From the IMG/VR virus record IMGVR_UViG_3300021142_000021, positions 18,376 to 82,375 of that record: a DNA stretch of 64,000 nt; one strand, given 5' to 3'. Both the position numbers and the translations under genes were made by a program. Shown one piece after another: positions 38,769 through 63,299 of this stretch. A model generated the notes under the pieces. That model saw nothing but the letters and a program-made list of their open reading frames with translations, had not been told where the DNA came from and did not search any database. Source of the DNA: a virus. Positions within the stretch are counted from its first letter, which is position 1. The number at the start of each line of letters is the position of its first letter.

Positions 38769-39378
38769 TTCTACCATCTTCAATAGATTAGTAGTATTCG
38801 GGTGTAGTCATACTGTTGGCCAATTTCTTCCTGGATGGGAACCCGAACCCGGTGAGCAAGGTATACTTAGTAATCTTGCCTGGTCAAATCATCTTGCAGA
38901 ATATCTAAATATTCCTGAAATAATTAATAAGGCATCCGGTGGTAACTCCAATCATGAGATCTTATTAAATATAATGAATTTTAAATTCTTACCAGGTGAC
39001 CTATGTGTAATATGCTGGTCATATGCTAACAGAGAAATTCTATTCGACTATCATGAAGCCACCGGGTGTATAAGAACATCGGTTCTATTACATATCGATA
39101 AAGATGATACTTTTTTTAAAGTGCATTCTATGCACGATCTAGAATTTAGAAGTAGAGAATATATCAATCATGCCACTCTATTATTAAAGAGTGTTGGAAT
39201 AGAATATCGAATGGGGAAGATAGAAAACTGGGTGTCTAATAAAAATATAAACTGGTCAGACTATTCATATGACGATTTTCTATCTTTCGTAGTATCGGAT
39301 TTCGGATCAGACGGATATCACCCCGGCGTGATATCTCATAAAGAATTTGCAAAGAAAATATATGAATCATTTAAATAA
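38752..39378 (+). CDS. SGNH/GDSL-like protein, copy 5
   Basis: FGCSHT...GGNSN...DGYHPGVISH. Confidence 0.6.
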   Translation: MQNTNNSTIFNRLVVFGCSHTVGQFLPGWEPEPGEQGILSNLAWSNHLAEYLNIPEIINKASGGNSNHEILLNIMNFKFLPGDLCVICWSYANREILFDYHEATGCIRTSVLLHIDKDDTFFKVHSMHDLEFRSREYINHATLLLKSVGIEYRMGKIENWVSNKNINWSDYSYDDFLSFVVSDFGSDGYHPGVISHKEFAKKIYESFK

Positions 39379-49771: not shown

Positions 49772-50220
49772 TAAGCACCTTTAAAAATTGAAAAGTTGTC
49801 ACAGCATATACCTAACGGGTTTAGTGAACCTGCCTGAATTTCTTTAATAATTCTACTATCATTGGGCATAACCATTATACCATCGTGTGTTCGAATACCG
49901 GTATTAGCCCATTTAATCCCTTTCGATGTGAATACATAATCATCCTTATCGTGCCAGAATACATGTACTTTCGGGTTATTGTAAAGACTTACATATCCTT
50001 GTAAATCTTTAGCATGAGTCCATATTTGCGGACGCTCTAAGAAGGATAATTCAATTTCTTCTCTCGGAACATCATGACCTAAATACCATTTATGATTGAT
50101 AAGCCACACATCAATCTCTACGTCATACCCTGCAGCAATTGCCTCTTCTATATATGCAGTTGTGTTTTCCTTTAACTCATTACGACCTTTATAATTACCA
50201 CGGTGTGCTATCCTAATCAT
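49771..50220 (-). CDS. Glycerophosphodiester phosphodiesterase-like protein
   Basis: IAHRGN...EN...DVEIDVW...LGHD...HAK. Confidence 0.75.
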   Translation of the reverse strand: MIRIAHRGNYKGRNELKENTTAYIEEAIAAGYDVEIDVWLINHKWYLGHDVPREEIELSFLERPQIWTHAKDLQGYVSLYNNPKVHVFWHDKDDYVFTSKGIKWANTGIRTHDGIMVMPNDSRIIKEIQAGSLNPLGICCDNFSIFKGA

Positions 50221-50446
50221 CTTTAGTTACCTCACCCATCTTGCGTCCAGCCCATTGATAAATTTCAGCAAGTAGTTCACTTGCCTGTAATGCCATAGCT
50301 GAATGTTCTTCATCCAATCCTGGATGATCTCCTAACGCTACCTCAATATGATTACACAGAATATGTGTTCTATCCATAACTTCGAAGTATAGAAACTTAT
50401 CAGGCACAACCGTATTATCGAAATCTTCACTGCGTAGTAAATCCAT
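50213..50446 (-). CDS. Hypothetical protein
   Basis: Packed ORF. Confidence 0.7.
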   Translation of the reverse strand: MDLLRSEDFDNTVVPDKFLYFEVMDRTHILCNHIEVALGDHPGLDEEHSAMALQASELLAEIYQWAGRKMGEVTKDD

Positions 50447-51617: not shown

Positions 51618-52130
51618 TTATTTCTTCTTTATCATATCGAACATTTTGAGTAAGGCTTCTGCATTACCTTTAGCATCATCAACTGGATGATGGGTATGTT
51701 TTGTTTCACGTAGGTGCTTGAAGGTTGACATAGTATCTCCTGCTATTCCCTTATAGAAGGATCCGATATTAGCAGATGACCACCCAAACGGGTTGCGTCC
51801 GAGTTGTTGCCAAAAGTAATAATTTAGGAAGGCTGCATCGTAGCCATTATTGTCCGACCACAGGATAGGTCGTCCACTTACGTTCTTGTTTAGCCATATC
51901 TCGAAGTTTTGCATAGCATCTCGTGGATCAGGAAACTTTAATGTCTCTGGACGAGAGAATCCGCTAATAGCAAGTGCTTCGGGAATATAAATCTCTGAAA
52001 TTGGTTTTAGTTGTGCGTAGAATGTACGCTGTAATCCTGCTTCAACAATAACTGCTCCAAAGCAAATCATTGAATGCATTCCAGGACAAGGTCCATCGCT
52101 CTCGACATCTACTGATACATTTCGACTCAT
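51618..52130 (-). CDS. DEDDh 3'-5' exonuclease
   Basis: VDVESDGP...DNNGYD...HHPVDDA. Confidence 0.85.
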   Translation of the reverse strand: MSRNVSVDVESDGPCPGMHSMICFGAVIVEAGLQRTFYAQLKPISEIYIPEALAISGFSRPETLKFPDPRDAMQNFEIWLNKNVSGRPILWSDNNGYDAAFLNYYFWQQLGRNPFGWSSANIGSFYKGIAGDTMSTFKHLRETKHTHHPVDDAKGNAEALLKMFDMIKKK

Positions 52131-54018: not shown

Positions 54019-54243
54019 TTATAAACCGAATTTAAGTTTGAATGCTTTTGTATCTTCTTCGTGGCGAAATATAATTCCACCTGCGATATCAACTCCATAT
54101 GCACATATGGTATAGGTGTGATCAAACTGCCAGTTACCATCTGCTACATTATCGTGGCACCAGTCTTCAACAGTTCGGAAAAGCATATAGGATTCAACAA
54201 CGTCAATATTACCAATTACATTTTGTAACCTTATATTTGCCAT
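54019..54243 (-). CDS. FKLKFGL-family mini-protein 16
   Basis: Ends HEEDTKAFKLKFGL; own GATAAATA at 54267-54274. Confidence 0.8.
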   Translation of the reverse strand: MANIRLQNVIGNIDVVESYMLFRTVEDWCHDNVADGNWQFDHTYTICAYGVDIAGGIIFRHEEDTKAFKLKFGL

Positions 54244-54276
54244 TAAATCCTCTAGCTAATTGGCAGTATTTATCTT

Positions 54277-54474
54277 CTATAAACCAAATTTAAGTCTAAA
54301 AGCTAACGCATCTTCTCTAGTTTCAAATCGTATTGTACCGGGATGGTGTGTACCAAATCCGTAGAGTTGCCAGTTAGATCTGCCAATAGTTCCATTTAGC
54401 CATCGTCGATATTCATTATTATGATCAAAGAATTTCCCATCGAAATTAAATTCTATAAAGTATTCTTCATCCAT
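54277..54474 (-). CDS. FKLKFGL-family mini-protein 15
   Basis: Ends REDALAFRLKFGL. Confidence 0.8.
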   Translation of the reverse strand: MDEEYFIEFNFDGKFFDHNNEYRRWLNGTIGRSNWQLYGFGTHHPGTIRFETREDALAFRLKFGL

Positions 54475-54751
54475 TGAATTTTAACTTTATTATTAGCCAG
54501 AGTTCTTCATGTACATCGAACATATTAGTCACATAAAATTCTCTATCTATTTTTCCTAACTTATGTATATACCATTGCCTCTGATCTTGTGTCTGCAACC
54601 ACTCTGTTACATCTCTAGATACCAATATAGTATACCACATTACACCATCTACTTCAGCCTGAGCTTCTATTCTGTGGAAAGCATTAACGGACCCGTCGGT
54701 ACTAGCCCATGTCACTTCTATACCTTGTTCCTTAAACTTCACACCATCCAT
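54467..54751 (-). CDS. FKLKFGL-family mini-protein 14 (divergent)
   Basis: TAATG-coupled start; ends HEELWLIIKLKFNG. Confidence 0.7.
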   Translation of the reverse strand: MDGVKFKEQGIEVTWASTDGSVNAFHRIEAQAEVDGVMWYTILVSRDVTEWLQTQDQRQWYIHKLGKIDREFYVTNMFDVHEELWLIIKLKFNG

Positions 54752-54957
54752 TACATCCACCTTAATTTGAATATTACAGCATCTTCCTGTTCCAGGAATA
54801 CACCTGCTAAATGACCATTCACATGACCCCATTCGGGCTCTGTATTTTCTTTTAACCAGTCAATCATGCCATCGGGTGCCTTAAATTCACCATACTTACC
54901 ATGCGGAGGAAAAGCAACGTATATAACACCCTCTCCATATTCTCTAACTGACATCAT
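54751..54957 (-). CDS. FKLKFGL-family mini-protein 13
   Basis: Ends QEDAVIFKLRWM. Confidence 0.8.
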   Translation of the reverse strand: MMSVREYGEGVIYVAFPPHGKYGEFKAPDGMIDWLKENTEPEWGHVNGHLAGVFLEQEDAVIFKLRWM

Positions 54958-55229
54958 GGTAATGGTTTAGCCTGTAGTTTAATCCACATAAATTCTTCCA
55001 TGTCGCATTCGCCGAATGTCTCTTTTAAATCTTCCATTCGATTTTTATAATATCTAACTTCGTTATCTTCCTCACGCCATACTCTTTCCGCGAGTGTCAA
55101 TGCCGTGCTATTATATAGTAATCTCGTCTCGAAATGTTCGTTAGAGATGCTATGAACATCGCGCTGCACCCAATACCTGCCTCGTACACCATACCAAGAA
55201 CCATCTGCCTCGTAATAAAGATTTACCAT
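54954..55229 (-). CDS. FKLKFGL-family mini-protein 12 (divergent)
   Basis: Ends MEEFMWIKLQAKPLP. Confidence 0.65.
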   Translation of the reverse strand: MVNLYYEADGSWYGVRGRYWVQRDVHSISNEHFETRLLYNSTALTLAERVWREEDNEVRYYKNRMEDLKETFGECDMEEFMWIKLQAKPLP

Positions 55230-55230
55230 A

Positions 55231-55446
55231 TTATCTAAACATCAATTTAAAAACTAAAACATCTGCTTCATCTGCAAAGATTAGAAACTCAGTGTTTCCT
55301 ACTCTATCTACTGTTCTTGTTGCTCTAAAGTCTTCTGATAACCATAACCAAATAGAAGTAACAAAAAACCCATCTCTATTCTGAATATCGTTACCGTAGT
55401 AATAAGCTACCATATTCTTCCAGTAGGGATATGCGTATAGTTTCAT
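55231..55446 (-). CDS. FKLKFGL-family mini-protein 11
   Basis: Ends EADVLVFKLMFR. Confidence 0.8.
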   Translation of the reverse strand: MKLYAYPYWKNMVAYYYGNDIQNRDGFFVTSIWLWLSEDFRATRTVDRVGNTEFLIFADEADVLVFKLMFR

Positions 55447-55631
55447 AGTCCGCTCATTAATTTAAACGCTACTGCATCCATCTCGTCTTCGAATTGTATA
55501 GAAATTATACGACCCAGGTAACCGTGCTTACGTGGCTCACGCACTACAACACCTCCGTGAGTCTTAGCCCATACAAGTAAAGGATACCTAGGCTTGACTA
55601 CTTTAAAATAATTGTATTCTATGCTTATCAT
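55443..55631 (-). CDS. FKLKFGL-family mini-protein 10
   Basis: Ends EMDAVAFKLMSGL. Confidence 0.8.
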   Translation of the reverse strand: MISIEYNYFKVVKPRYPLLVWAKTHGGVVVREPRKHGYLGRIISIQFEDEMDAVAFKLMSGL

Positions 55632-55858
55632 AATCCATACTTCAATCTAAATGCTGTAGCATCCTCACGCCTGACAAATGTTACAGCAAATACAGCCTTA
55701 CCATAGTTATATTTCTTCATTCTAAATGCAGGGTTACCGCGCTTAGTTTTTGGTAATGCTGCCAACCAATGTGATTGTTCTATCAATACCTGCACATCAA
55801 GGTTGGCCACAGAGTCCATTATGTCGTTACCTTTTTTAAAGATGTAAATTGTTTTCAT
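55628..55858 (-). CDS. FKLKFGL-family mini-protein 9
   Basis: Ends REDATAFRLKYGL. Confidence 0.8.
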   Translation of the reverse strand: MKTIYIFKKGNDIMDSVANLDVQVLIEQSHWLAALPKTKRGNPAFRMKKYNYGKAVFAVTFVRREDATAFRLKYGL

Positions 55859-56067
55859 AAACCAAACTTTAATTTAAATACCAACAGGTCTTCTTCACTA
55901 TCTAATAATACCATGTGATAATAGGTCTTACCGTCTAGATAAGTTTTACCACCATTATAATCCCAGACTGCATTATCACACATATGTATCCATTCGTTAA
56001 TCACAGAATACTCTTTAATAGCCCATGGTCGATAAAGTCGTACGTGTATGCCTTCTTCTACTATCAT
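55855..56067 (-). CDS. FKLKFGL-family mini-protein 8
   Basis: Ends EEDLLVFKLKFGL. Confidence 0.8.
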   Translation of the reverse strand: MIVEEGIHVRLYRPWAIKEYSVINEWIHMCDNAVWDYNGGKTYLDGKTYYHMVLLDSEEDLLVFKLKFGL

Positions 56068-56243
56068 AATCCAAACTTTAGTTTAAAAGCAATTGCGTCA
56101 TCTTCTCTTACAAAATACAGAGTTTGATCACCATGTAATTCGAATGTTACTTTATTCGGGGACTGTTTTATTAAGTCATCTAACCAATCGCATATTATAG
56201 AGTCAGGTATCTTATCATCCATTGGCCAATATACTTTTATCAT
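56064..56243 (-). CDS. FKLKFGL-family mini-protein 7 (59 aa, not in ORF track)
   Basis: MIKVYWPMDD...REDDAIAFKLKFGL; ATGA-coupled on both sides. Confidence 0.8.
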   Translation of the reverse strand: MIKVYWPMDDKIPDSIICDWLDDLIKQSPNKVTFELHGDQTLYFVREDDAIAFKLKFGL

Positions 56244-56413
56244 AATCCAAACTTTATCTTAAATGCAAGTGCATCTTCCTCGTAGAAGAACTCAATACTT
56301 TCTAGCATATTACTCCACCGCCAAACATTATTCTCAGTACCTAGTACTTCTTCCATCCACGCAATCATAGGAATAAAATCCATAAAGTTAACATTGCGTA
56401 TGTCTACAATCAT
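56240..56413 (-). CDS. FKLKFGL-family mini-protein 6 (57 aa, not in ORF track)
   Basis: MIVDIRNVNF...YEEDALAFKIKFGL. Confidence 0.8.
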   Translation of the reverse strand: MIVDIRNVNFMDFIPMIAWMEEVLGTENNVWRWSNMLESIEFFYEEDALAFKIKFGL

Positions 56414-56619
56414 ATTCCAAACTTTAATCTAAGTATTACAGCTTGTTCAGAATCTATGGTTACTCCACATAGATATCCCGGCCTGGATTTAGAAACACCC
56501 CAGCTAGAATAATTTTGATTTTGTTCTTCTATATTTTCATGTATCCAGTCTTCTAACTCTTTATTCTTAAGACGTTGATCATTGTATCGCTCCATACCAG
56601 CAAAACTAATATAACTCAT
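56410..56619 (-). CDS. FKLKFGL-family mini-protein 5
   Basis: Ends SEQAVILRLKFGI. Confidence 0.8.
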   Translation of the reverse strand: MSYISFAGMERYNDQRLKNKELEDWIHENIEEQNQNYSSWGVSKSRPGYLCGVTIDSEQAVILRLKFGI

Positions 56620-56795
56620 ATTCCTAGTTTTAACCTCATAATAATTGCATCCTCATCTGACATATCTATTCTATCAATAACAAAATCATCCTCACACATT
56701 GTATATGTGTATTGAATCTTATCATCGGCCAGCCATTGTAAAATTGTATTATACATAGGTAGTGGCAAACGTTTCATCTCAATGTACACCATCAT
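56616..56795 (-). CDS. FKLKFGL-family mini-protein 4 (59 aa, not in ORF track)
   Basis: MMVYIEMKRL...DEDAIIMRLKLGI. Confidence 0.75.
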   Translation of the reverse strand: MMVYIEMKRLPLPMYNTILQWLADDKIQYTYTMCEDDFVIDRIDMSDEDAIIMRLKLGI

Positions 56796-56982
56796 ACGCC
56801 CAATATTTAAGTTTAAAGGCTAATGCATCCTCCGAATTACCAAACGTAATAGTATCAGTAGCACTGCTCCAATGATAATCCTTTATATTGTTATCATCTA
56901 GCCAACCCTTCATTTCCTTATAGTATGCTATGTCCTGCCGTTGCTTAATATAAAAGCTATGTAAAGGATATATCATAATCAT
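56779..56982 (-). CDS. FKLKFGL-family mini-protein 3
   Basis: SEDALAFKLKY followed by a short frameshift-like tail WAYDGVH. Confidence 0.8.
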   Translation of the reverse strand: MIMIYPLHSFYIKQRQDIAYYKEMKGWLDDNNIKDYHWSSATDTITFGNSEDALAFKLKYWAYDGVH

Positions 56983-57176
56983 AATGCAAACTTTAATTTG
57001 ATTATGGTAGCATCTTCGTCGTTTAGTATAAGTCCAAGAAACATTCCATTTCTAAAATCCCAATCAGGTTCTTCTATATTTTCTACTACCCAATTATAGA
57101 CGTGTGACGGAATACCACCTATCCAGACTCCTGGTGCATTTAATTTTGGCAACCCTCTGAAGTTAATATATGTCAT
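56979..57176 (-). CDS. FKLKFGL-family mini-protein 2
   Basis: Ends DEDATIIKLKFAL. Confidence 0.8.
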   Translation of the reverse strand: MTYINFRGLPKLNAPGVWIGGIPSHVYNWVVENIEEPDWDFRNGMFLGLILNDEDATIIKLKFAL

Positions 57177-57463
57177 ACAATAAAACTTAGTTTAAACATT
57201 AATGCAACTTGAGCTTCCTTAAAATAGATACCCTGTGCGTAACGATCCCCTGTACGGTATTCCCATGTTTCCCCTCGTGAACCTAAGTGCTCCTCTAACC
57301 AAATCATATAGCTATTCATAAGTCTAACCTTAACACCATAAGAGCGTGGATCATTATCTAAATCATGAAGATCAACATATGTCCAATTTGAAAAGTTTAC
57401 ATAACGTTTAGGAACACCCTTATGGTCTAGAGATTCGGAAATGTGATTGTCAATGGGAATCAT
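57173..57463 (-). CDS. FKLKFGL-family mini-protein 1
   Basis: Ends AQVALMFKLSFIV; start at ATG 57463 (or 57469). Confidence 0.7.
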   Translation of the reverse strand: MIPIDNHISESLDHKGVPKRYVNFSNWTYVDLHDLDNDPRSYGVKVRLMNSYMIWLEEHLGSRGETWEYRTGDRYAQGIYFKEAQVALMFKLSFIV

Positions 57464-57469
57464 AGACAT

Positions 57470-57498
57470 AGTATAACAATGATTAAGTTGGATGTCAA
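57470..57498 (-). promoter_or_regulatory. Sigma70 promoter TTGACA-N17-TATACT (extended -10) heading the mini-gene array
   Basis: Minus strand TTGACA tccaacttaatcattgt TATACT. Confidence 0.8.
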
Positions 57499-57577
57499 GT
57501 GGGGAGGGTGGTTTGTATCTGGCGTCGTAGACGCGCCGTAAGCGCAATTTTTCTAGACTAGTTATCTACCGCTATAA

Positions 57578-57803: not shown

Positions 57804-57880
57804 GCGAAAAAACATAGGGCACGCTTGCCCGCGCCTCTCTATCTTTACCTTTTTGTAAAATTACACGACTGACTGGGATT

Positions 57881-57920
57881 TTACAAAACTTTACATAACT
57901 TTACATAACTTTACATTACT
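57881..57920 (+). repeat. Tandem 10-mer TTACAWWACT x4
   Basis: ttacaaaact ttacataact ttacataact ttacattact. Confidence 0.95.
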
Positions 57921-58090
57921 GTGTCTCGCTTGCCACTGCACGCAACTAAATGTAAGTGCGAGGCAACGTGCTGCACGTTAGCACACGCTAACATACAGTC
58001 TCGCTGCTACTATGCACGCTACATGCATAGTAGCACGGGGGTGCTACATGTAACACATGTAACATAGCTTGCGCTATGCTACGTTATGTG

Positions 58091-58429
58091 TTAAGCAAAC
58101 AAGCGCAATACAATTGCGTTTTGCGTTTGCACAACACTAGCGTTATATTGCTTTGCAAGTAGCATTAAGTTGCTACATACTTGCGCGTTGTTAACTTTAA
58201 TGCTAACAAACTTAGCACGTAAGTTTGTGTACACGCGCTGCTTAAAGTACGTTGCTTGCACAGCACGCGCTAATGCTGCTACTGTAGCGTGCTGTGCTGC
58301 TGTGTACAGCGCAGCGTTTGCAGCGTTTTGTGCGCGTACTTGCAACAGCGTAATAAACGCGCTGTGCTTTACGTTTGTGTTAGCTTGTGTTTTAACAAGC
58401 TGCTGCTGTGCTTTTGTAAGTTTACGCAT
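58091..58429 (-). CDS. Hypothetical 112-aa protein with no D, E, G, P or W
   Basis: Leader homologous to that of 58847; hairpins downstream of the stop. Confidence 0.7.
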   Translation of the reverse strand: MRKLTKAQQQLVKTQANTNVKHSAFITLLQVRAQNAANAALYTAAQHATVAALARAVQATYFKQRVYTNLRAKFVSIKVNNAQVCSNLMLLAKQYNASVVQTQNAIVLRLFA

Positions 58430-58475
58430 AATTGCTTTACTTTGTTTGTGCTGCACATTATTGTACAGTGCTTGT

Positions 58476-58504
58476 ATTATAACGCTTTTTTGTGCTGCTG
58501 TGTG
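58476..58504 (-). promoter_or_regulatory. Putative GR-free promoter CACACA-N17-TATAAT (left)
   Basis: Same spacing as 58763-58791. Confidence 0.55.
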
Positions 58505-58762
58505 CTACTTTACAAACTGTTACACTTTAGCATTTCATGCTGCATTGCTCAAGTTGCACAGCGAGGGGTTAATGTTTTATGCGCTGCACACTGCCTCGCA
58601 ATTATTTTAAGCTTGCTGAAAATTTTTAACGAGAGCTGTGCTATAATATGTTTAACGCGCAATGTATAACTGTAACTATACTTTTTGGGCCTCGCTTAGC
58701 AAATAGCAATAATGCAGCATGAACTTGTTAGATGTAACAGTTTGTAAGTTGCAAAAATACAA

Positions 58763-58791
58763 CACACAAAACATAAAAAGTGCGCTATAAT
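58763..58791 (+). promoter_or_regulatory. Putative GR-free promoter CACACA-N17-TATAAT (right)
   Basis: Mirror of 58476-58504. Confidence 0.55.
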
Positions 58792-58846
58792 AATAACACT
58801 GCACAGCAATAATGCTAAGTGCAGCAACTTAGTAAAGTAAACAATT

Positions 58847-59440
58847 ATGCTTACATTAGCTTACGCGCAAGCTGCAATTGCAGCGCACAAAAACAACAAA
58901 GTAAATGCTACGCGCATTAGTGCTTTGTTGCAACAATACAACAACACAGCTACAATCGCAAACGTAACGCAAGTTACGCAAGTGCAATGCAGCGCGGCAA
59001 ACAAAAATGTTGTTATACAAAAAGTAACACGCGCAAGTGTGTTGCTGTTTGCTAACGCATTAAATTATGTTGCTTGCGTACAACGCAGCGCAGCTAAAAT
59101 TGCAGACAACGACGCTGCTGCAATCGCGCAATTTACAGCAAGCGCAGCAAGCTTTACGCACGATGCTAACTGCTACAGCATTGTTACAAACAACAATAGC
59201 GCACAGCAATATTTGTATTTGCACTACAACAACGCGCAAAGTGTGTATGTTTTAAACAACACAATTATTAGTGCTGCAACTGCTGCAAGCTTTTGCAGTG
59301 CAAGCGTAGCAAAAGCAATGTTGCAAACAAGCAACACTACGCACAATGTTAGCAATAACGTAACGCATAGCATTTGTGTACGCACTGTAAAGTTGCAAAA
59401 CATTGTGCGTTTAGCTGCGCTAAAGCAAGTGTTGCAGTAA
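58847..59440 (+). CDS. Hypothetical 197-aa protein with no E, G, P or W and only 3 D
   Basis: Long ORF with promoter and terminator. Confidence 0.8.
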   Translation: MLTLAYAQAAIAAHKNNKVNATRISALLQQYNNTATIANVTQVTQVQCSAANKNVVIQKVTRASVLLFANALNYVACVQRSAAKIADNDAAAIAQFTASAASFTHDANCYSIVTNNNSAQQYLYLHYNNAQSVYVLNNTIISAATAASFCSASVAKAMLQTSNTTHNVSNNVTHSICVRTVKLQNIVRLAALKQVLQ

Positions 59441-59470
59441 AACAACAAGTAGCGCAAGCTACTTAACGCA

Positions 59471-59497
59471 AAGCGCACTATTTTAGTGCGCTTTTTT
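59471..59497 (+). terminator. Intrinsic terminator
   Basis: aagcgcacta-ttt-tagtgcgctt followed by a T run. Confidence 0.85.
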
Positions 59498-59561
59498 ATG
59501 CGCGTTATAATCGTGCTGCATTGCTCAAGTCCTGCAACGAGGGGAAGTGCTGCTGTGTCGT

Positions 59562-59718
59562 GCTACTGTTTTTAAAGACGTACATGCGTGCAAAGCGAGG
59601 GCAACACATTGTTACATCTTGCTTTTAGGCTAAGCTTAGTCTACATCCTTTAAGCAAGATGTAACACACACGCGCATCTCGCTATTGTTTTTAAAGACGT
59701 ACATGCGTGCAAAGCGAG
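59562..59718 (+). repeat. 38-bp direct repeat x2 flanking a long hairpin
   Basis: GCTAYTGTTTTTAAAGACGTACATGCGTGCAAAGCGAG at 59562-59599 and 59681-59718; 15-bp stem 59610-59624/59652-59666. Confidence 0.9.
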
Positions 59719-60018
59719 AGGGGCACAATATTGCTAACCTATCTACCATTTTGCTGTGTCCGTGCTGCAGGTTTTTTAGGTATTAAAAACCTAATACGAG
59801 AGGGTGCTTTGACATTTATAAGCAACTGTAGTAAACAGCGTTTAAAAGCAATACTGCTACTCTGCTATTAACTTTTGTTTTAGTGCTGCTGTAGCGCGTT
59901 TTAAGCTGCTTGCTGCACGTTGTAAACTAGCTGTGTAAAGCAAGCACGCAACACAAAGGTGTGTCTCGCACTAGGTTTTTAAGGATAAAAAATCCTGCAG
60001 CGAGACTATGCGGCCACA

Positions 60019-61244: not shown

Positions 61245-61273
61245 ATTATAGCGCAAAGGAACTGTGCTGTCAA
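61245..61273 (-). promoter_or_regulatory. Consensus sigma70 promoter TTGACA-N17-TATAAT
   Basis: Perfect consensus. Confidence 0.9.
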
Positions 61274-61905
61274 CAACTATTTTTCGCCTCGGTACCGATG
61301 CACGCAACTACTTTTGTCTGCAGAGACTTGCGTTTATTGCGTTCACGCTGTTGTGCATTTCTACGTAATCTTATTTCATCGGGTGTTAAATTTAACTTAT
61401 TATGTGGTACTCTGCCCATCTTAGCGCGGGATTCTGCTGTATGTTTTTTACCGAACATATGATTATTCGAGCCCTGTAGTGCTACACTAATTTTAGCATT
61501 ACGCGCTGGATTAGTCCATACTTCTTGCATTGATGCTGTATAACGTTCCATAGTCTCGGGTTTAGCATAGGCAGAACGATTGCTTATGCTCGAGGCTTGT
61601 TTTGCGGCATCTGTGTGTATGTAGCCACTGCTTCCATCTCCTCCATCGGATTTGTTACGAAGTATGCCAGTCCCATTGTCCTTTCTTCCATACCAGCGTA
61701 TAATACGACGCTCAATAGCGAACGCACCTAACTCAGTAAGGTTAGCCTCAAGAATTACTATGAGAGCTCTATTAGTTGGAGGCGAGACTATGTGTTGTTT
61801 GCTCTTAGAGCGTTTTCCCTTACCTTTGCCTATATAGTAAGGTGTCCCATCCTCGCGTAAGTAAGCGTAGACATAGAACGCAAGGGACGAGACTATTTTA
61901 TACAT
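61270..61905 (-). CDS. GIY-YIG homing endonuclease with NUMOD3 motifs
   Basis: [19 protein letters not shown]...ILRNKSDGG; GATAAATA at 61910-61917 (-). Confidence 0.9.
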
Positions 61906-62048
61906 ACGCTATTTATCGATTGTAAGCAGATGTAACAGTTAAAATAATGCTTGCTCGAAGTTGTTTTCTGCCATATAATAAGCACATGGAAACAAATAAA
62001 GCAAACAAAAAGCAAGCGCAAGCAAGCATGTTTGTTACAATTTATTTG

Positions 62049-62077
62049 TTGACATTGGAGCACAATGGTGCTACAAT
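62049..62077 (+). promoter_or_regulatory. Sigma70 promoter TTGACA-N17-TACAAT
   Basis: Extended -10 TG present. Confidence 0.8.
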
Positions 62078-62141
62078 ACATATATGCGCTAAACGGTGCA
62101 TATTGTTTAACTAACGTGCTAAGGCACAAAGGAGAGCTATC

Positions 62142-62621
62142 ATCGATAAAGGAATCAGACCGGCCGCGAACGCCAAGTTTTTGGAGTTGCTCCCCACCCG
62201 CGCTGAAATTGGCAACACCGGCTTCCGCAAGAACGTTATGTTTTACGTGATGGAGGAATTCGGCATCACGCTTGCAAGTGCTGCAACGCACTACAATCAC
62301 GCTTTCCAAGCTGTTAAGCTTGCAACTCCCGAGCTGGTGGAAGGGCTGGGGCGTGCAGACGACAAGAAGGGCGGACGCAAGCCCAAAGCTGTTGTTGTTG
62401 CAGAAGCTGTTGCTGTGCTGCTTGGCACGCCGGAAGCTGTTGCAACACCCGCAGTTGGCGGCGAAGTCAGCAATGCAGGCGAAACTGCTCCAGAGCAGAC
62501 GGTGTTTACAGTGAAGAAGAAGTCCGACGACACGGTGATCGGGACGTTCAGCTTCGAAGATGCAAAGGCGTTGGTGGCAAAGGCTGCTGCTGCTAAGAAG
62601 GCTGCACTTTATTACGTTTGA
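62142..62621 (+). CDS. Hypothetical early protein, apparent ATC start
   Basis: AAAGGAG SD 7 nt before in-frame ATC-GAT-AAA; alternative TTG start at 62181. Confidence 0.7.
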   Translation: MDKGIRPAANAKFLELLPTRAEIGNTGFRKNVMFYVMEEFGITLASAATHYNHAFQAVKLATPELVEGLGRADDKKGGRKPKAVVVAEAVAVLLGTPEAVATPAVGGEVSNAGETAPEQTVFTVKKKSDDTVIGTFSFEDAKALVAKAAAAKKAALYYV

Positions 62622-62636
62622 TTGATAAATAAGAGC

Positions 62637-63299
62637 ATGAGCTCTTATTACGTTTACGCTTACCTTAGGACAGGAAACCTAACACCTTATTACATAGGTA
62701 AAGGTAAGCGCGAACGTGCCTTCATAAAACACGGTAGAATTACCGTACCAAAAGATAAATCTCGTATCGTGTTCTTAGAATGTAACCTATCAGAGATAGG
62801 TGCATTCGCTATAGAACGACGTATGATTAAATGGTATGGTAGAAAAGATAATGGAACAGGTATTCTTAGGAACATAACCGATGGTGGAGACGGGTGTTCG
62901 GGTCGTATCTATAGACACACAGCAGAAACTAAAGCTAAGATTAGTGCTGCTCAGGTAGGAATGCTGCGCGGACCTCATACAGAAGAGACAAAGTCAAAAC
63001 TCAAGGCAGCGAGGGCACTTAGACCTCCCGCCTCGGATGAGACTCGCAGGCGTATGAGTGAATCTCTCCGAGGAGAAAAGAATCCCAACTTTGGAAAAAC
63101 TGCTACAGCTGAACAGCTAGAAGCTGCCAGTGCATTACGTCGTAATATACCTAGATCGCCTACTGCCTGTGCTAAACATAGCGCCACAATAAAAGGCATA
63201 CCAAAACCTAAACTCACTTGCCCTCACTGCGGGCTCACTGGCGGCACCCCGCAAATGAAGAGATATCATTTTGATAACTGCAAACAAAAACCTATGTAG
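62637..63299 (+). CDS. GIY-YIG homing endonuclease with NUMOD3 and C-terminal zinc-finger motif
   Basis: YYVYAYLR...PYYIGKG; CPHC...HFDNC; GATAAATA at 62624-62631. Confidence 0.9.

Follow-up and report, generated by a model that had tools for sequence, protein, structure and literature searches.

A 2-kb island in a giant phage fragment

We analyzed a 64,000-nt stretch of viral DNA, referred to here as the window, which spans bases 18376–82375 of the 82,375-b IMG/VR record IMGVR_UViG_3300021142_000021 (G000). Coordinates without another label are those of the window. The record is rated 21% complete and its ends are not known. It represents one part of a giant phage genome of roughly 360 kb with T4-like baseplate genes. 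At 57.9–60.0 kb lies an island in which the dinucleotides GA, GG, TC, and CC are nearly absent from both strands. These four are called banned steps below; YC (5'-pyrimidine-C-3') stands for TC and CC, and GR (5'-G-purine-3') for GA and GG, which are the same steps on the other strand. Two divergent genes, A and B, lie in the island, each behind a putative promoter. The island contains the following features.

57880–57919, minus strand: array of three overlapping 20-nt copies of a TTTACAWAAC unit with 10-nt spacing, at the left edge (repeat family D6)
57924–58041, no strand assigned: left boundary block with a perfect 11-bp hairpin at 58005–58035 and two inverted pairs of the CTCGC...GCGAG type
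58429 to 58091, minus strand: gene A, 112 aa, with ATG at 58429 and the open reading frame (ORF) open to 58456, inside a 495-bp clean run
58476–58524, minus strand: putative gene A promoter, with the −10 element TATAAT at 58481–58476, a 17-nt spacer, and CACACA at 58504–58499
58524–58510, minus strand: upstream element TGTAACAGTTTGTAA of the gene A promoter, which as a whole mirrors that of gene B (inverted repeat I1)
58535–58732, no strand assigned: central spacer between the divergent promoters, with a third TGnTATAAT at 58641–58646 (plus strand)
within 58535–58732, no strand assigned: the only banned steps of the core, in GCGAGGGG, CCTCGC, CGAGAGC, and GGGCCTCGC
58733–58791, plus strand: putative gene B promoter, with TGTAACAGTTTGTAA at 58733–58747, CACACA at 58763–58768, a 17-nt spacer, and TATAAT at 58786–58791
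58847–59440, plus strand: gene B, 197 aa, with 6 banned steps; Asp 3, Glu 0, Gly 0, Pro 0
59473–59497, plus strand: gene B intrinsic terminator as read from the sequence, GCGCAC-7 nt-GTGCGC followed by T6, free of banned steps
59506–60005, no strand assigned: partly depleted non-coding block, with TATAAT at 59506–59511 and six CGAGRG/CTCGC motifs
59562–59613 and 59681–59732, no strand assigned: two 52-nt direct repeats of the non-coding block
59610–59666, no strand assigned: hairpin of the non-coding block with 20-bp arms
59764–59801 and 59964–60001, no strand assigned: 38-nt inverted repeat of the non-coding block

A sequence-only reading of the window had taken the island for a first-entering or first-expressed segment. 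The gene pair under the ban is strongly promoted and early-looking, with mirror-image CACACA–N17–TATAAT promoters. Neither gene has a Shine–Dalgarno sequence, and AGTAAAG occupies that position. In the leader of gene B, a hairpin lies 3' of the promoter and AGTAAAGTAAACAATT precedes the ATG. The counterpart of gene B in the relative G001 has a promoter element that reads TGTAACAGGTTGTAA and the ribosome site GGAGG.

Relatives were used for comparison. Three of them, G001, G002, and G003, are complete genomes of 363–369 kb that were fetched via a neighboring gene; their "terminal repeats" are 123–127 nt, i.e., assembly overlaps. A fourth, G017 (353,233 b), is 99% complete, but 331 of its 543 ORFs had no match, indicating that it is too distant for gene-content comparison. 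In the phage collection, no match was found to the island by megablast or blastn, or to 16 kb of the window by megablast. A tRNA scan returned none, and Rfam gave sub-threshold matches only.

Banned steps are depleted far beyond chance

Banned steps made up 18.4% of dinucleotides in the window and 18.4 ± 3.3% per 300-nt segment across the whole 82,375-b record. The island contained long runs without any of them, at 58040–58535 (495 bp), 59162–59511 (349 bp), and 58731–58956 (225 bp), plus shorter ones at 58996–59105 (109 bp) and 59861–59958 (97 bp). Elsewhere in the window the longest clean run was 40 bp, and in 1.1 Mb of G001–G003 it was 58 bp. No other such island was present in the 82-kb record. 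From 59511 to 60005 the depletion was partial, with 5–9% banned steps per 300-nt segment. A total of 86 banned steps were left in 57880–60010; they formed 45 clusters, many within GCGAG/CTCGC motifs.

The odds ratios of GA, GG, TC, and CC at 57900–60005 were 0.19, 0.29, 0.20, and 0.11, respectively, whereas those in the remaining record were 0.97–1.06. Other steps stayed common in the island (GC 2.64, CG 1.13, GT 1.15, CT 1.10, and AG 0.93). As these ratios remained high and the G+C content of the island (41.8%) exceeded that of the rest of the record (37.0%), neither low G+C content nor low complexity accounts for the depletion.

Shuffling controls were then compared with the observed counts. 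The segment 58000–59520 contained 29 banned steps, whereas 2000 mononucleotide shuffles gave 314 ± 13 (minimum 272), and the longest clean run across all of them was 67. Gene B contained 6 banned steps (GA 3, GG 1, TC 2, CC 0). The same protein written with phage codon usage gave 53 ± 6 (minimum 36), and permuting the gene's own codons among synonymous sites gave 28 ± 3 (minimum 19), indicating that the purge extends to codon junctions.

Assembly contigs from other samples were also inspected. The stretch was found in 20 freshwater DNA runs, 8 of which are possibly its source; no RNA run was among those listed. In three of the four other runs examined, a 2729-nt contig spanned 57000–59596 with 1–9 differences. 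An independent 5.7-kb metagenome contig (L106) contained an identical gene B. These contigs rule out an assembly chimera. The island was found at the same syntenic place in the relatives G004, G006, and G012.

The sequence-only reading had placed clean tracts at 58042–58534, 58741–58955, and 59164–59510, had counted about six banned steps in the gene at 58847–59440, and had described AG/CT, GC, CG, and GT as abundant, the composition as not low in G+C, and GA/GG use in the flanks as normal. The counts above bore out each of these statements. It had also proposed that the depletion might vanish against composition- and codon-preserving shuffles or reflect a chimera; the observed counts fell far below every shuffle minimum, and the bridging contigs and L106 spoke against a chimera. 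The ban is thus real, present on both strands, and selected rather than due to chance.

Members of the gene B family range from unpurged to purged

Genes A and B are real and conserved. Gene B belongs to a family of unannotated phage proteins of ~200 aa, which comprised 31 clusters when the G001 form was the query and 41 when the window form was the query. Family members share the motifs GTTFA, VQLFNN, AVKRSA, FEHTDCYS, YLYAIYN, TPSEAKKLL, and VRT. In gene B, GTTFA became NTATIA, FEH became FTH, and TPSEAKKLL became CSASVAKAML, so that conserved Gly, Glu, and Pro residues were replaced. The 3D structure of gene B was modeled using AlphaFold2 (mean predicted local distance difference test score 93.6). 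The family gave nothing significant in Pfam or PHROGs. The model had no Foldseek match in PDB at E <= 0.001 and no ESM Atlas match of >= 0.9, and in BFVD it matched uncharacterized phage proteins only. A likeness to YaeO/Rof, the best match of a wide structure search, was given no weight because a Z of 5.7 over 67 residues does not rise above the noise usual for such searches; Hfq, WYL, and Sm barrels ranked next.

The proportion of banned steps in the family ranged widely. It was 24.6% (151/614) in the G001 copy, whose protein has 10 Asp, 12 Glu, 5 Gly, and 6 Pro residues. Intermediate values were obtained for L104 (17.1%), G002 (13.4%), L101 (11.5%), L108 (11.3%), and L112 (5.2%). The lowest were those of G006 (2.8–2.9%, depending on the start codon), G012 (1.3%), the window (1.0%), L109 (0.7%), L107 (0.3%), and L110 and L111 (0.2% each). 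The copy of G017 had 39 GA, 20 GG, 0 TC, and 2 CC on its sense strand. The five purged copies (G000, L107, L109, L110, and L111) retained 1–6 banned steps and 0–3 sense YC per ~600 nt. In L110 and L111 the sole remaining step was in the Asp codon of FTHD, and L109 kept the Asp codon plus three CC. The least depleted context was TCG/CGA (ratio 0.375); these survivors are uninformative about what reads the step because the His–Asp codon pair in the cleanest genes forces them. The clade of the window, in which 0.2–1.0% of steps are banned ones, paid for the ban with its Shine–Dalgarno sequence and with Gly, Glu, Asp, and Pro residues that are conserved in the family.

For gene A, one database cluster was 99% identical. 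A homologue with 58% identity (P0074) is likewise nearly without Asp, Glu, Gly, and Pro, and a distant relative of ordinary composition is present in G001 (27% identity over 78 aa, E 4e-4). No significant similarity was found between gene A and the small island genes of G017 and L107.

Selection maintains the ban

In gene B, 52% of all single substitutions would make a banned step. The five purged homologues differed from each other at 120–169 of ~593 sites (20–28%) and were still clean, indicating that selection maintains the ban. Among nine variants from other runs, none created a banned step.

A quick tree of 80 gene B family members was built, with purge states proxied by the counts of Pro and of Asp + Glu + Gly. 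The states were both-strand for 33 members, sense-only for 4, partial for 2, and none for 41. Both-strand members grouped not as one clade but as two, inside which unpurged members also branched. A minimum of four gains or losses of the ban was required on well-supported branches, although in a quick tree shared composition could pull purged rows together.

The routes by which the steps were lost were mixed. At YC sites compared with the unpurged L108, C>A accounted for 42 changes, C>T for 26, T>A for 17, and C>G for 16, and both bases had changed in 53. At GR sites compared with L108, G>A accounted for 39 of 154 changed cells, G>T for 26, G>C for 18, and A>C for 29; compared with L105, G>A accounted for 95 of 289 changed cells. 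This mixture fits selection on the word rather than a pure C-to-U process.

The rule appears to follow the sense strand in special transcription units

In relatives, six small acidic genes next to the 197-aa gene had 0–1 YC and 18–47 GR on their sense strands, whichever their orientation. G017 contained exactly one island of ~2 kb, with 5–7 small genes that had almost no sense-strand YC. Each of these genes has paired TGTAAAG elements, a hairpin, and TATAAT, and AGGA ribosome sites were kept. The neighbor genes and G017 suggested a family-wide rule of no sense YC, or no template GR, in special early units. The rule appears to have been extended to both strands and to promoters in the clade of the window. 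Single sites appear not to be tolerated in purged units, and close relatives seem to have no ban at all.

Promoters with two TGTAA elements and TATAAT headed purged units at 3/4 sites in G017, 1/1 in G006, and 2/3 in G000, and they headed unpurged genes in G001 and G002. The latter two genomes have the 197-aa gene and the promoter class, though G001–G003 lack any clean run >58 bp. Base composition also differed between lineages. The window genes have 22–23% C (ordinary phage genes 17.7–18.4%), with a C minus G of +0.024 and a purine fraction of 0.54, and the G017 island has a C minus G of −0.066 and a purine fraction of 0.586. In G017 a TGTAA-type element stands upstream of TATAAT. Read on the minus strand, the repeats at 57880–57919 resemble the paired TGTAA upstream element of the group's early promoters and may have a promoter role.

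Two gene sets were considered as determinants of the ban and rejected. A 23-kb sugar/enzyme cluster (27711–50446) is absent from G001–G003 and also absent at that place in the purged G006 and G012. It contains ~28 enzyme genes, including nine ~260-aa paralogues, a carbamoyltransferase, and an aminotransferase-like gene, and it is partially present in G004. The thymidylate-synthase family does not discriminate, with one copy in each complete relative. Each of the four purged fragments had a member of a 77-aa family (50213–50446) that G001–G003 lacked; this family is too small to carry weight.

A proposed reader of YC steps during first transcription

Something in the infected cell reads exactly the G-then-A/G step. 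Conserved amino acids, the ribosome-binding site, and the promoter consensus all give way to the ban, and this points to a very strong agent that acts on single sites within the first minutes. We prefer, tentatively, the explanation that the island evades a single-hit reader of YC/GR during first transcription. The island would be a small cassette whose two genes are the first to be expressed and use host-type promoters of a single special class, and natural selection would have recoded it until no YC, and hence no GR opposite, remained. The reader would be lineage-specific and would meet the cassette genes while they are transcribed, in the first minutes of infection. It may be an enzyme, probably the host's, that cleaves YC or marks it chemically wherever a single strand is exposed, either on the non-template DNA of the transcription bubble or on mRNA. 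The cassette would have to be expressed before the phage neutralizes this agent. In the clade of the window both strands would be exposed or read, and both would have become clean. We favored a single-hit reader on exposed strands because it accounts for the zero tolerance, the link to transcription, the restriction to first genes, and the differences between lineages.

A wider form of this explanation is possible but rather doubtful. Freshwater bacteria may have a factor, as yet undescribed, that recognizes 5'-pyrimidine-C where single strands are exposed (non-template bubble DNA or nascent mRNA), much as a prokaryotic counterpart of APOBEC or EndoIV-like enzymes would. It would strike the phage genes that are transcribed first, and giant phages may answer with stealth-coded immediate-early cassettes whose products, e.g., the 197-aa family, disarm it. 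If so, the ban state of each phage lineage (none, one strand, or both) would report the version of the factor that it faced.

Several points weigh against a single-hit YC reader. We know of no enzyme with such a YC specificity, and the phage records and literature searched yielded no bacterial or phage enzyme that recognizes both TC and CC in single strands. The known nucleic-acid ADP-ribosyltransferases differ from it: DarT1 has no consensus motif, DarT2 recognizes TNTC, and CmdT ADP-ribosylates the adenine in GA of mRNA (PMC12945103). If the reader acts on RNA, the ban on promoter DNA upstream of the start and on the antisense strand would require bidirectional transcription. The presumed early expression of genes A and B is deduced solely from their promoter sequences. 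Finally, FolE, QueD, and QueE are present in the phage group, which keeps modification of the phage's own guanines alive as a competing cause.

Papers on DarT1, DarT2, ScARP, and the type III CRISPR DNase gave no YC/GR specificity. CmdT, of the CmdTAC system, resembles the proposed reader in being a bacterial antiphage enzyme that acts on single-stranded RNA and recognizes dinucleotides, GA among them (PMC12945103). It is unlike the proposed reader in that it does not cover GG, TC, or CC, whereas the rule across the gene family is that UC/CC are lost and many genes retain GA.

The literature search turned up no earlier account of phage early genes under a dinucleotide ban at the scale of whole genes. 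The phenomenon is of a known kind, the avoidance of a target word. New are the dinucleotide class, the awareness of strand, the rewriting of proteins, and a reader that is still to be named. The pattern gives the specificity of the reader (YC/GR) ahead of its identity. As the 197-aa family exists in unpurged, one-strand, and two-strand forms in related phages, natural variants are directly comparable in expression. The ban would also supply a practical guideline for designing genes meant to be expressed as soon as they enter a cell.

Possible modification of the phage's own guanines

The sequence-only reading had proposed DpdA-type modification of the phage's own guanines as a cause. The phage would swap the G in 5'-GA/GG for a 7-deazaguanine-type base, and first-read genes would be kept free of sites on the template strand, or, in the clade of the window, on both strands and in promoters. 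The appeal lies in the specificity. DpdA of coliphage CAjan modifies GA and GGC (PMC7544227), i.e., G followed by A or G(C), which nearly equals the banned step. If the modified base blocked RNA polymerase, selection would likewise favor a template strand without GR.

The reading had also stated that the modification enzyme is not in the window, and this held. No preQ0/CDG genes were found in the 82-kb record. It had further suggested a search of the rest of the genome for dpdA, queCDE, and folE. In relatives, FolE and QueD were found in G017, G001, and G002. A radical SAM enzyme resembling QueE (phrog_2076, E 5.5e-47) is encoded 1.2 kb away from FolE in G017. Relatives of the CAjan QueE were present in G001, G002, G003, G004, and G017, and FolE relatives in G001, G002, G003, and G017. 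The phage group may well make a 7-deazaguanine, judging from these genes. QueC was absent from G017. Weak partial QueC-like matches were seen in the two unpurged complete relatives searched for it, G001 (202642–202812, L133) and G002 (38888–39058, L134). The DpdA profile phrog_887 gave no match in G000–G004, G006, G012, G017, or G018, whereas the CAjan control gave E 2e-98. Profile phrog_7068 had no match in G000, G001, G002, G004, or G017, and phmmer with the CAjan DpdA gave E 0.2 or worse. PF01702 (TGT family) had no match either, but it also misses CAjan's own DpdA. These negatives cover CAjan-type DpdA, divergent DpdA subfamilies being possible and G000 being only 21% complete. The transglycosylase is missing or unrecognizable.

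The distribution of the genes did not track the ban. FolE, QueD, and QueE are equally present in G001–G003, which have no ban, and the need for a clean non-template strand and the loss of the Shine–Dalgarno sequence are left unexplained. The island therefore resembles the CAjan system in its target, and in the FolE, QueD, and QueE of its phage group, but differs in that no DpdA was detected with a working control, G017 lacks QueC, and relatives that have these genes show no ban. We regard DpdA-type modification as a weakly supported and unlikely cause, though still a serious candidate.

Rho evasion as a possible cause

YC-free early transcripts might be unable to load Rho and so escape premature termination. 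The primary site of Rho is a 5'-YC-binding cleft (PMC12360218) and pyrimidine-poor coding strands avoid Rho (PMC13323073). Early transcripts whose sense strand has no YC fit this picture: YC numbered 0–3 per ~600 nt in the five purged copies, 2 in the G017 copy, and 0–1 in the six neighbor genes, and the G017 island is purine-rich with G exceeding C. However, Rho needs several contacts, so that the last YC would be near-neutral; yet prolines were replaced and as few as 0–3 YC were left, i.e., tolerance is practically zero. The window genes are C-rich, with C at or above G, and do not have the C-poor, purine-rich sense strand that Rho avoidance would call for. Rho also leaves the loss of GA/GG and of the Shine–Dalgarno sequence unaccounted for, as well as the disappearance of YC from promoters and the antisense strand, and the unpurged relatives would need to face a different Rho. 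We consider Rho evasion improbable as the cause.

Other proposed causes: a cytosine deaminase, target-site avoidance, and artefact

Single-stranded TC and CC form the classic APOBEC3 context. If a cytosine deaminase specific for YC (APOBEC-like or DddA-like) had edited this heavily transcribed DNA again and again, the ban would reflect mutation pressure instead of selection. G>A was the commonest single route of GR loss against both L108 and L105. At YC, however, C>A (42) outnumbered C>T (26), and G>T, G>C, and A>C were frequent. The G+C content of the island is above that of the genome, not lower. ORFs, promoters, terminator, and predicted fold are intact, and the GCGAG/CTCGC motifs were kept at ~11-fold enrichment. 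A mutational footprint is accordingly very improbable. In eukaryotic viruses, ZAP (CpG) and APOBEC3 (TC/CC) leave dinucleotide footprints. The island is like them in that depletion of two letters may trace a host factor that reads them; it is unlike them in that the depletion is total, confined to 1–2 kb of early genes in a bacteriophage, and reached by routes not dominated by C>T.

Avoidance of restriction sites or protospacer-adjacent motifs had also been put forward by the sequence-only reading. It did not fit, as AAGCTT and CTGCAG remain in the island and the depletion in relatives is on one strand only. A reader of double-stranded DNA does not fit because relatives keep GA/GG plentiful while sense TC/CC vanish. 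In the first-step-transfer DNA of T5 and at the leading end of T7, recognition motifs are avoided in first-injected or first-expressed DNA. The island is like these regions in that early DNA is kept free of attackable sequence until early products act. It is unlike them in banning a dinucleotide class rather than a 4–8-bp site, in retaining palindromes, in the strand-specific rule of its relatives, in overriding conserved amino acids and the ribosome-binding site, and in lying on a fragment without known ends.

An artefact (chimera, foreign insert, or low-complexity DNA) has practically no probability left: the compositional boundaries are sharp and the cassette content varies among relatives, but in other runs single contigs extend across the left boundary into the core, the synteny is shared by G004, G006, and G012, and homologues of the genes occur in complete relatives. 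The remaining probability belongs to causes other than those listed. Whether the cause is own base modification, Rho, or a novel nuclease or nucleic-acid-modifying defence, each would be new phage–host biology.

Cassette boundaries and surrounding regions

Homology to G004 stops at the left boundary block (58045–57778 versus L005 5902–6162, 77%). The right edge, at ~59998, falls on a GCGAG and is a junction: it was a loose end in 4/4 runs examined, and other strains differ beyond it. At the syntenic place in G004 (L005 5560–5900), the same promoter is followed by a different purged ORF of ~73 aa, and the 197-aa gene is missing. The junction and the different ORF of G004 indicate that the island behaves as a variable cassette site.

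GCGAG/CTCGC motifs numbered 11 in the 2.1-kb island (5.2 per kb) versus 0.46 per kb outside, an enrichment of ~11-fold. The sites (57925–60004) are mostly inverted pairs 30–60 nt apart, at the edges and in the central spacer, and they are also enriched in the G006 and G004 islands. They may be recombination or protein-binding sites of the cassette system. The hairpin scan did not list the terminator hairpin at 59473–59497, and it listed other, weaker ones.

The orientation of the 197-aa gene was compared with that of a marker gene (51618–52130, minus strand), using the pairs 58847–59440 versus L007 2638–3282 and L016 826–1437. The two genes are on opposite strands in the window and on the same strand in G006 and G012, indicating that the cassette has at some point in its evolution undergone an inversion at this site.

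Another promoter with two TGTAA elements plus TATAAT, the third of its class, lies in 61921–62140. A 169-nt run free of TC/CC (61972–62140) follows; it precedes a conserved Ala/Lys-rich gene (62181–62621) and then stops.

Early genes of G001 (L080 1492–2106; 264594–265313) have a G+C content of 54–66%, versus 36.4% for the genome. A 561-nt TA-free run in a GC-rich, Ala/Lys/Pro-rich gene of G001 is probably compositional.

The region just right of the island is flanked by two GIY-YIG homing-endonuclease-like genes, at 61270–61905 (minus strand) and 62622–63299 (plus strand). The region directly left of the island (54019–57547) contains small paralogous genes with an ...FKLKFG C-terminus, which are patchily shared with relatives.

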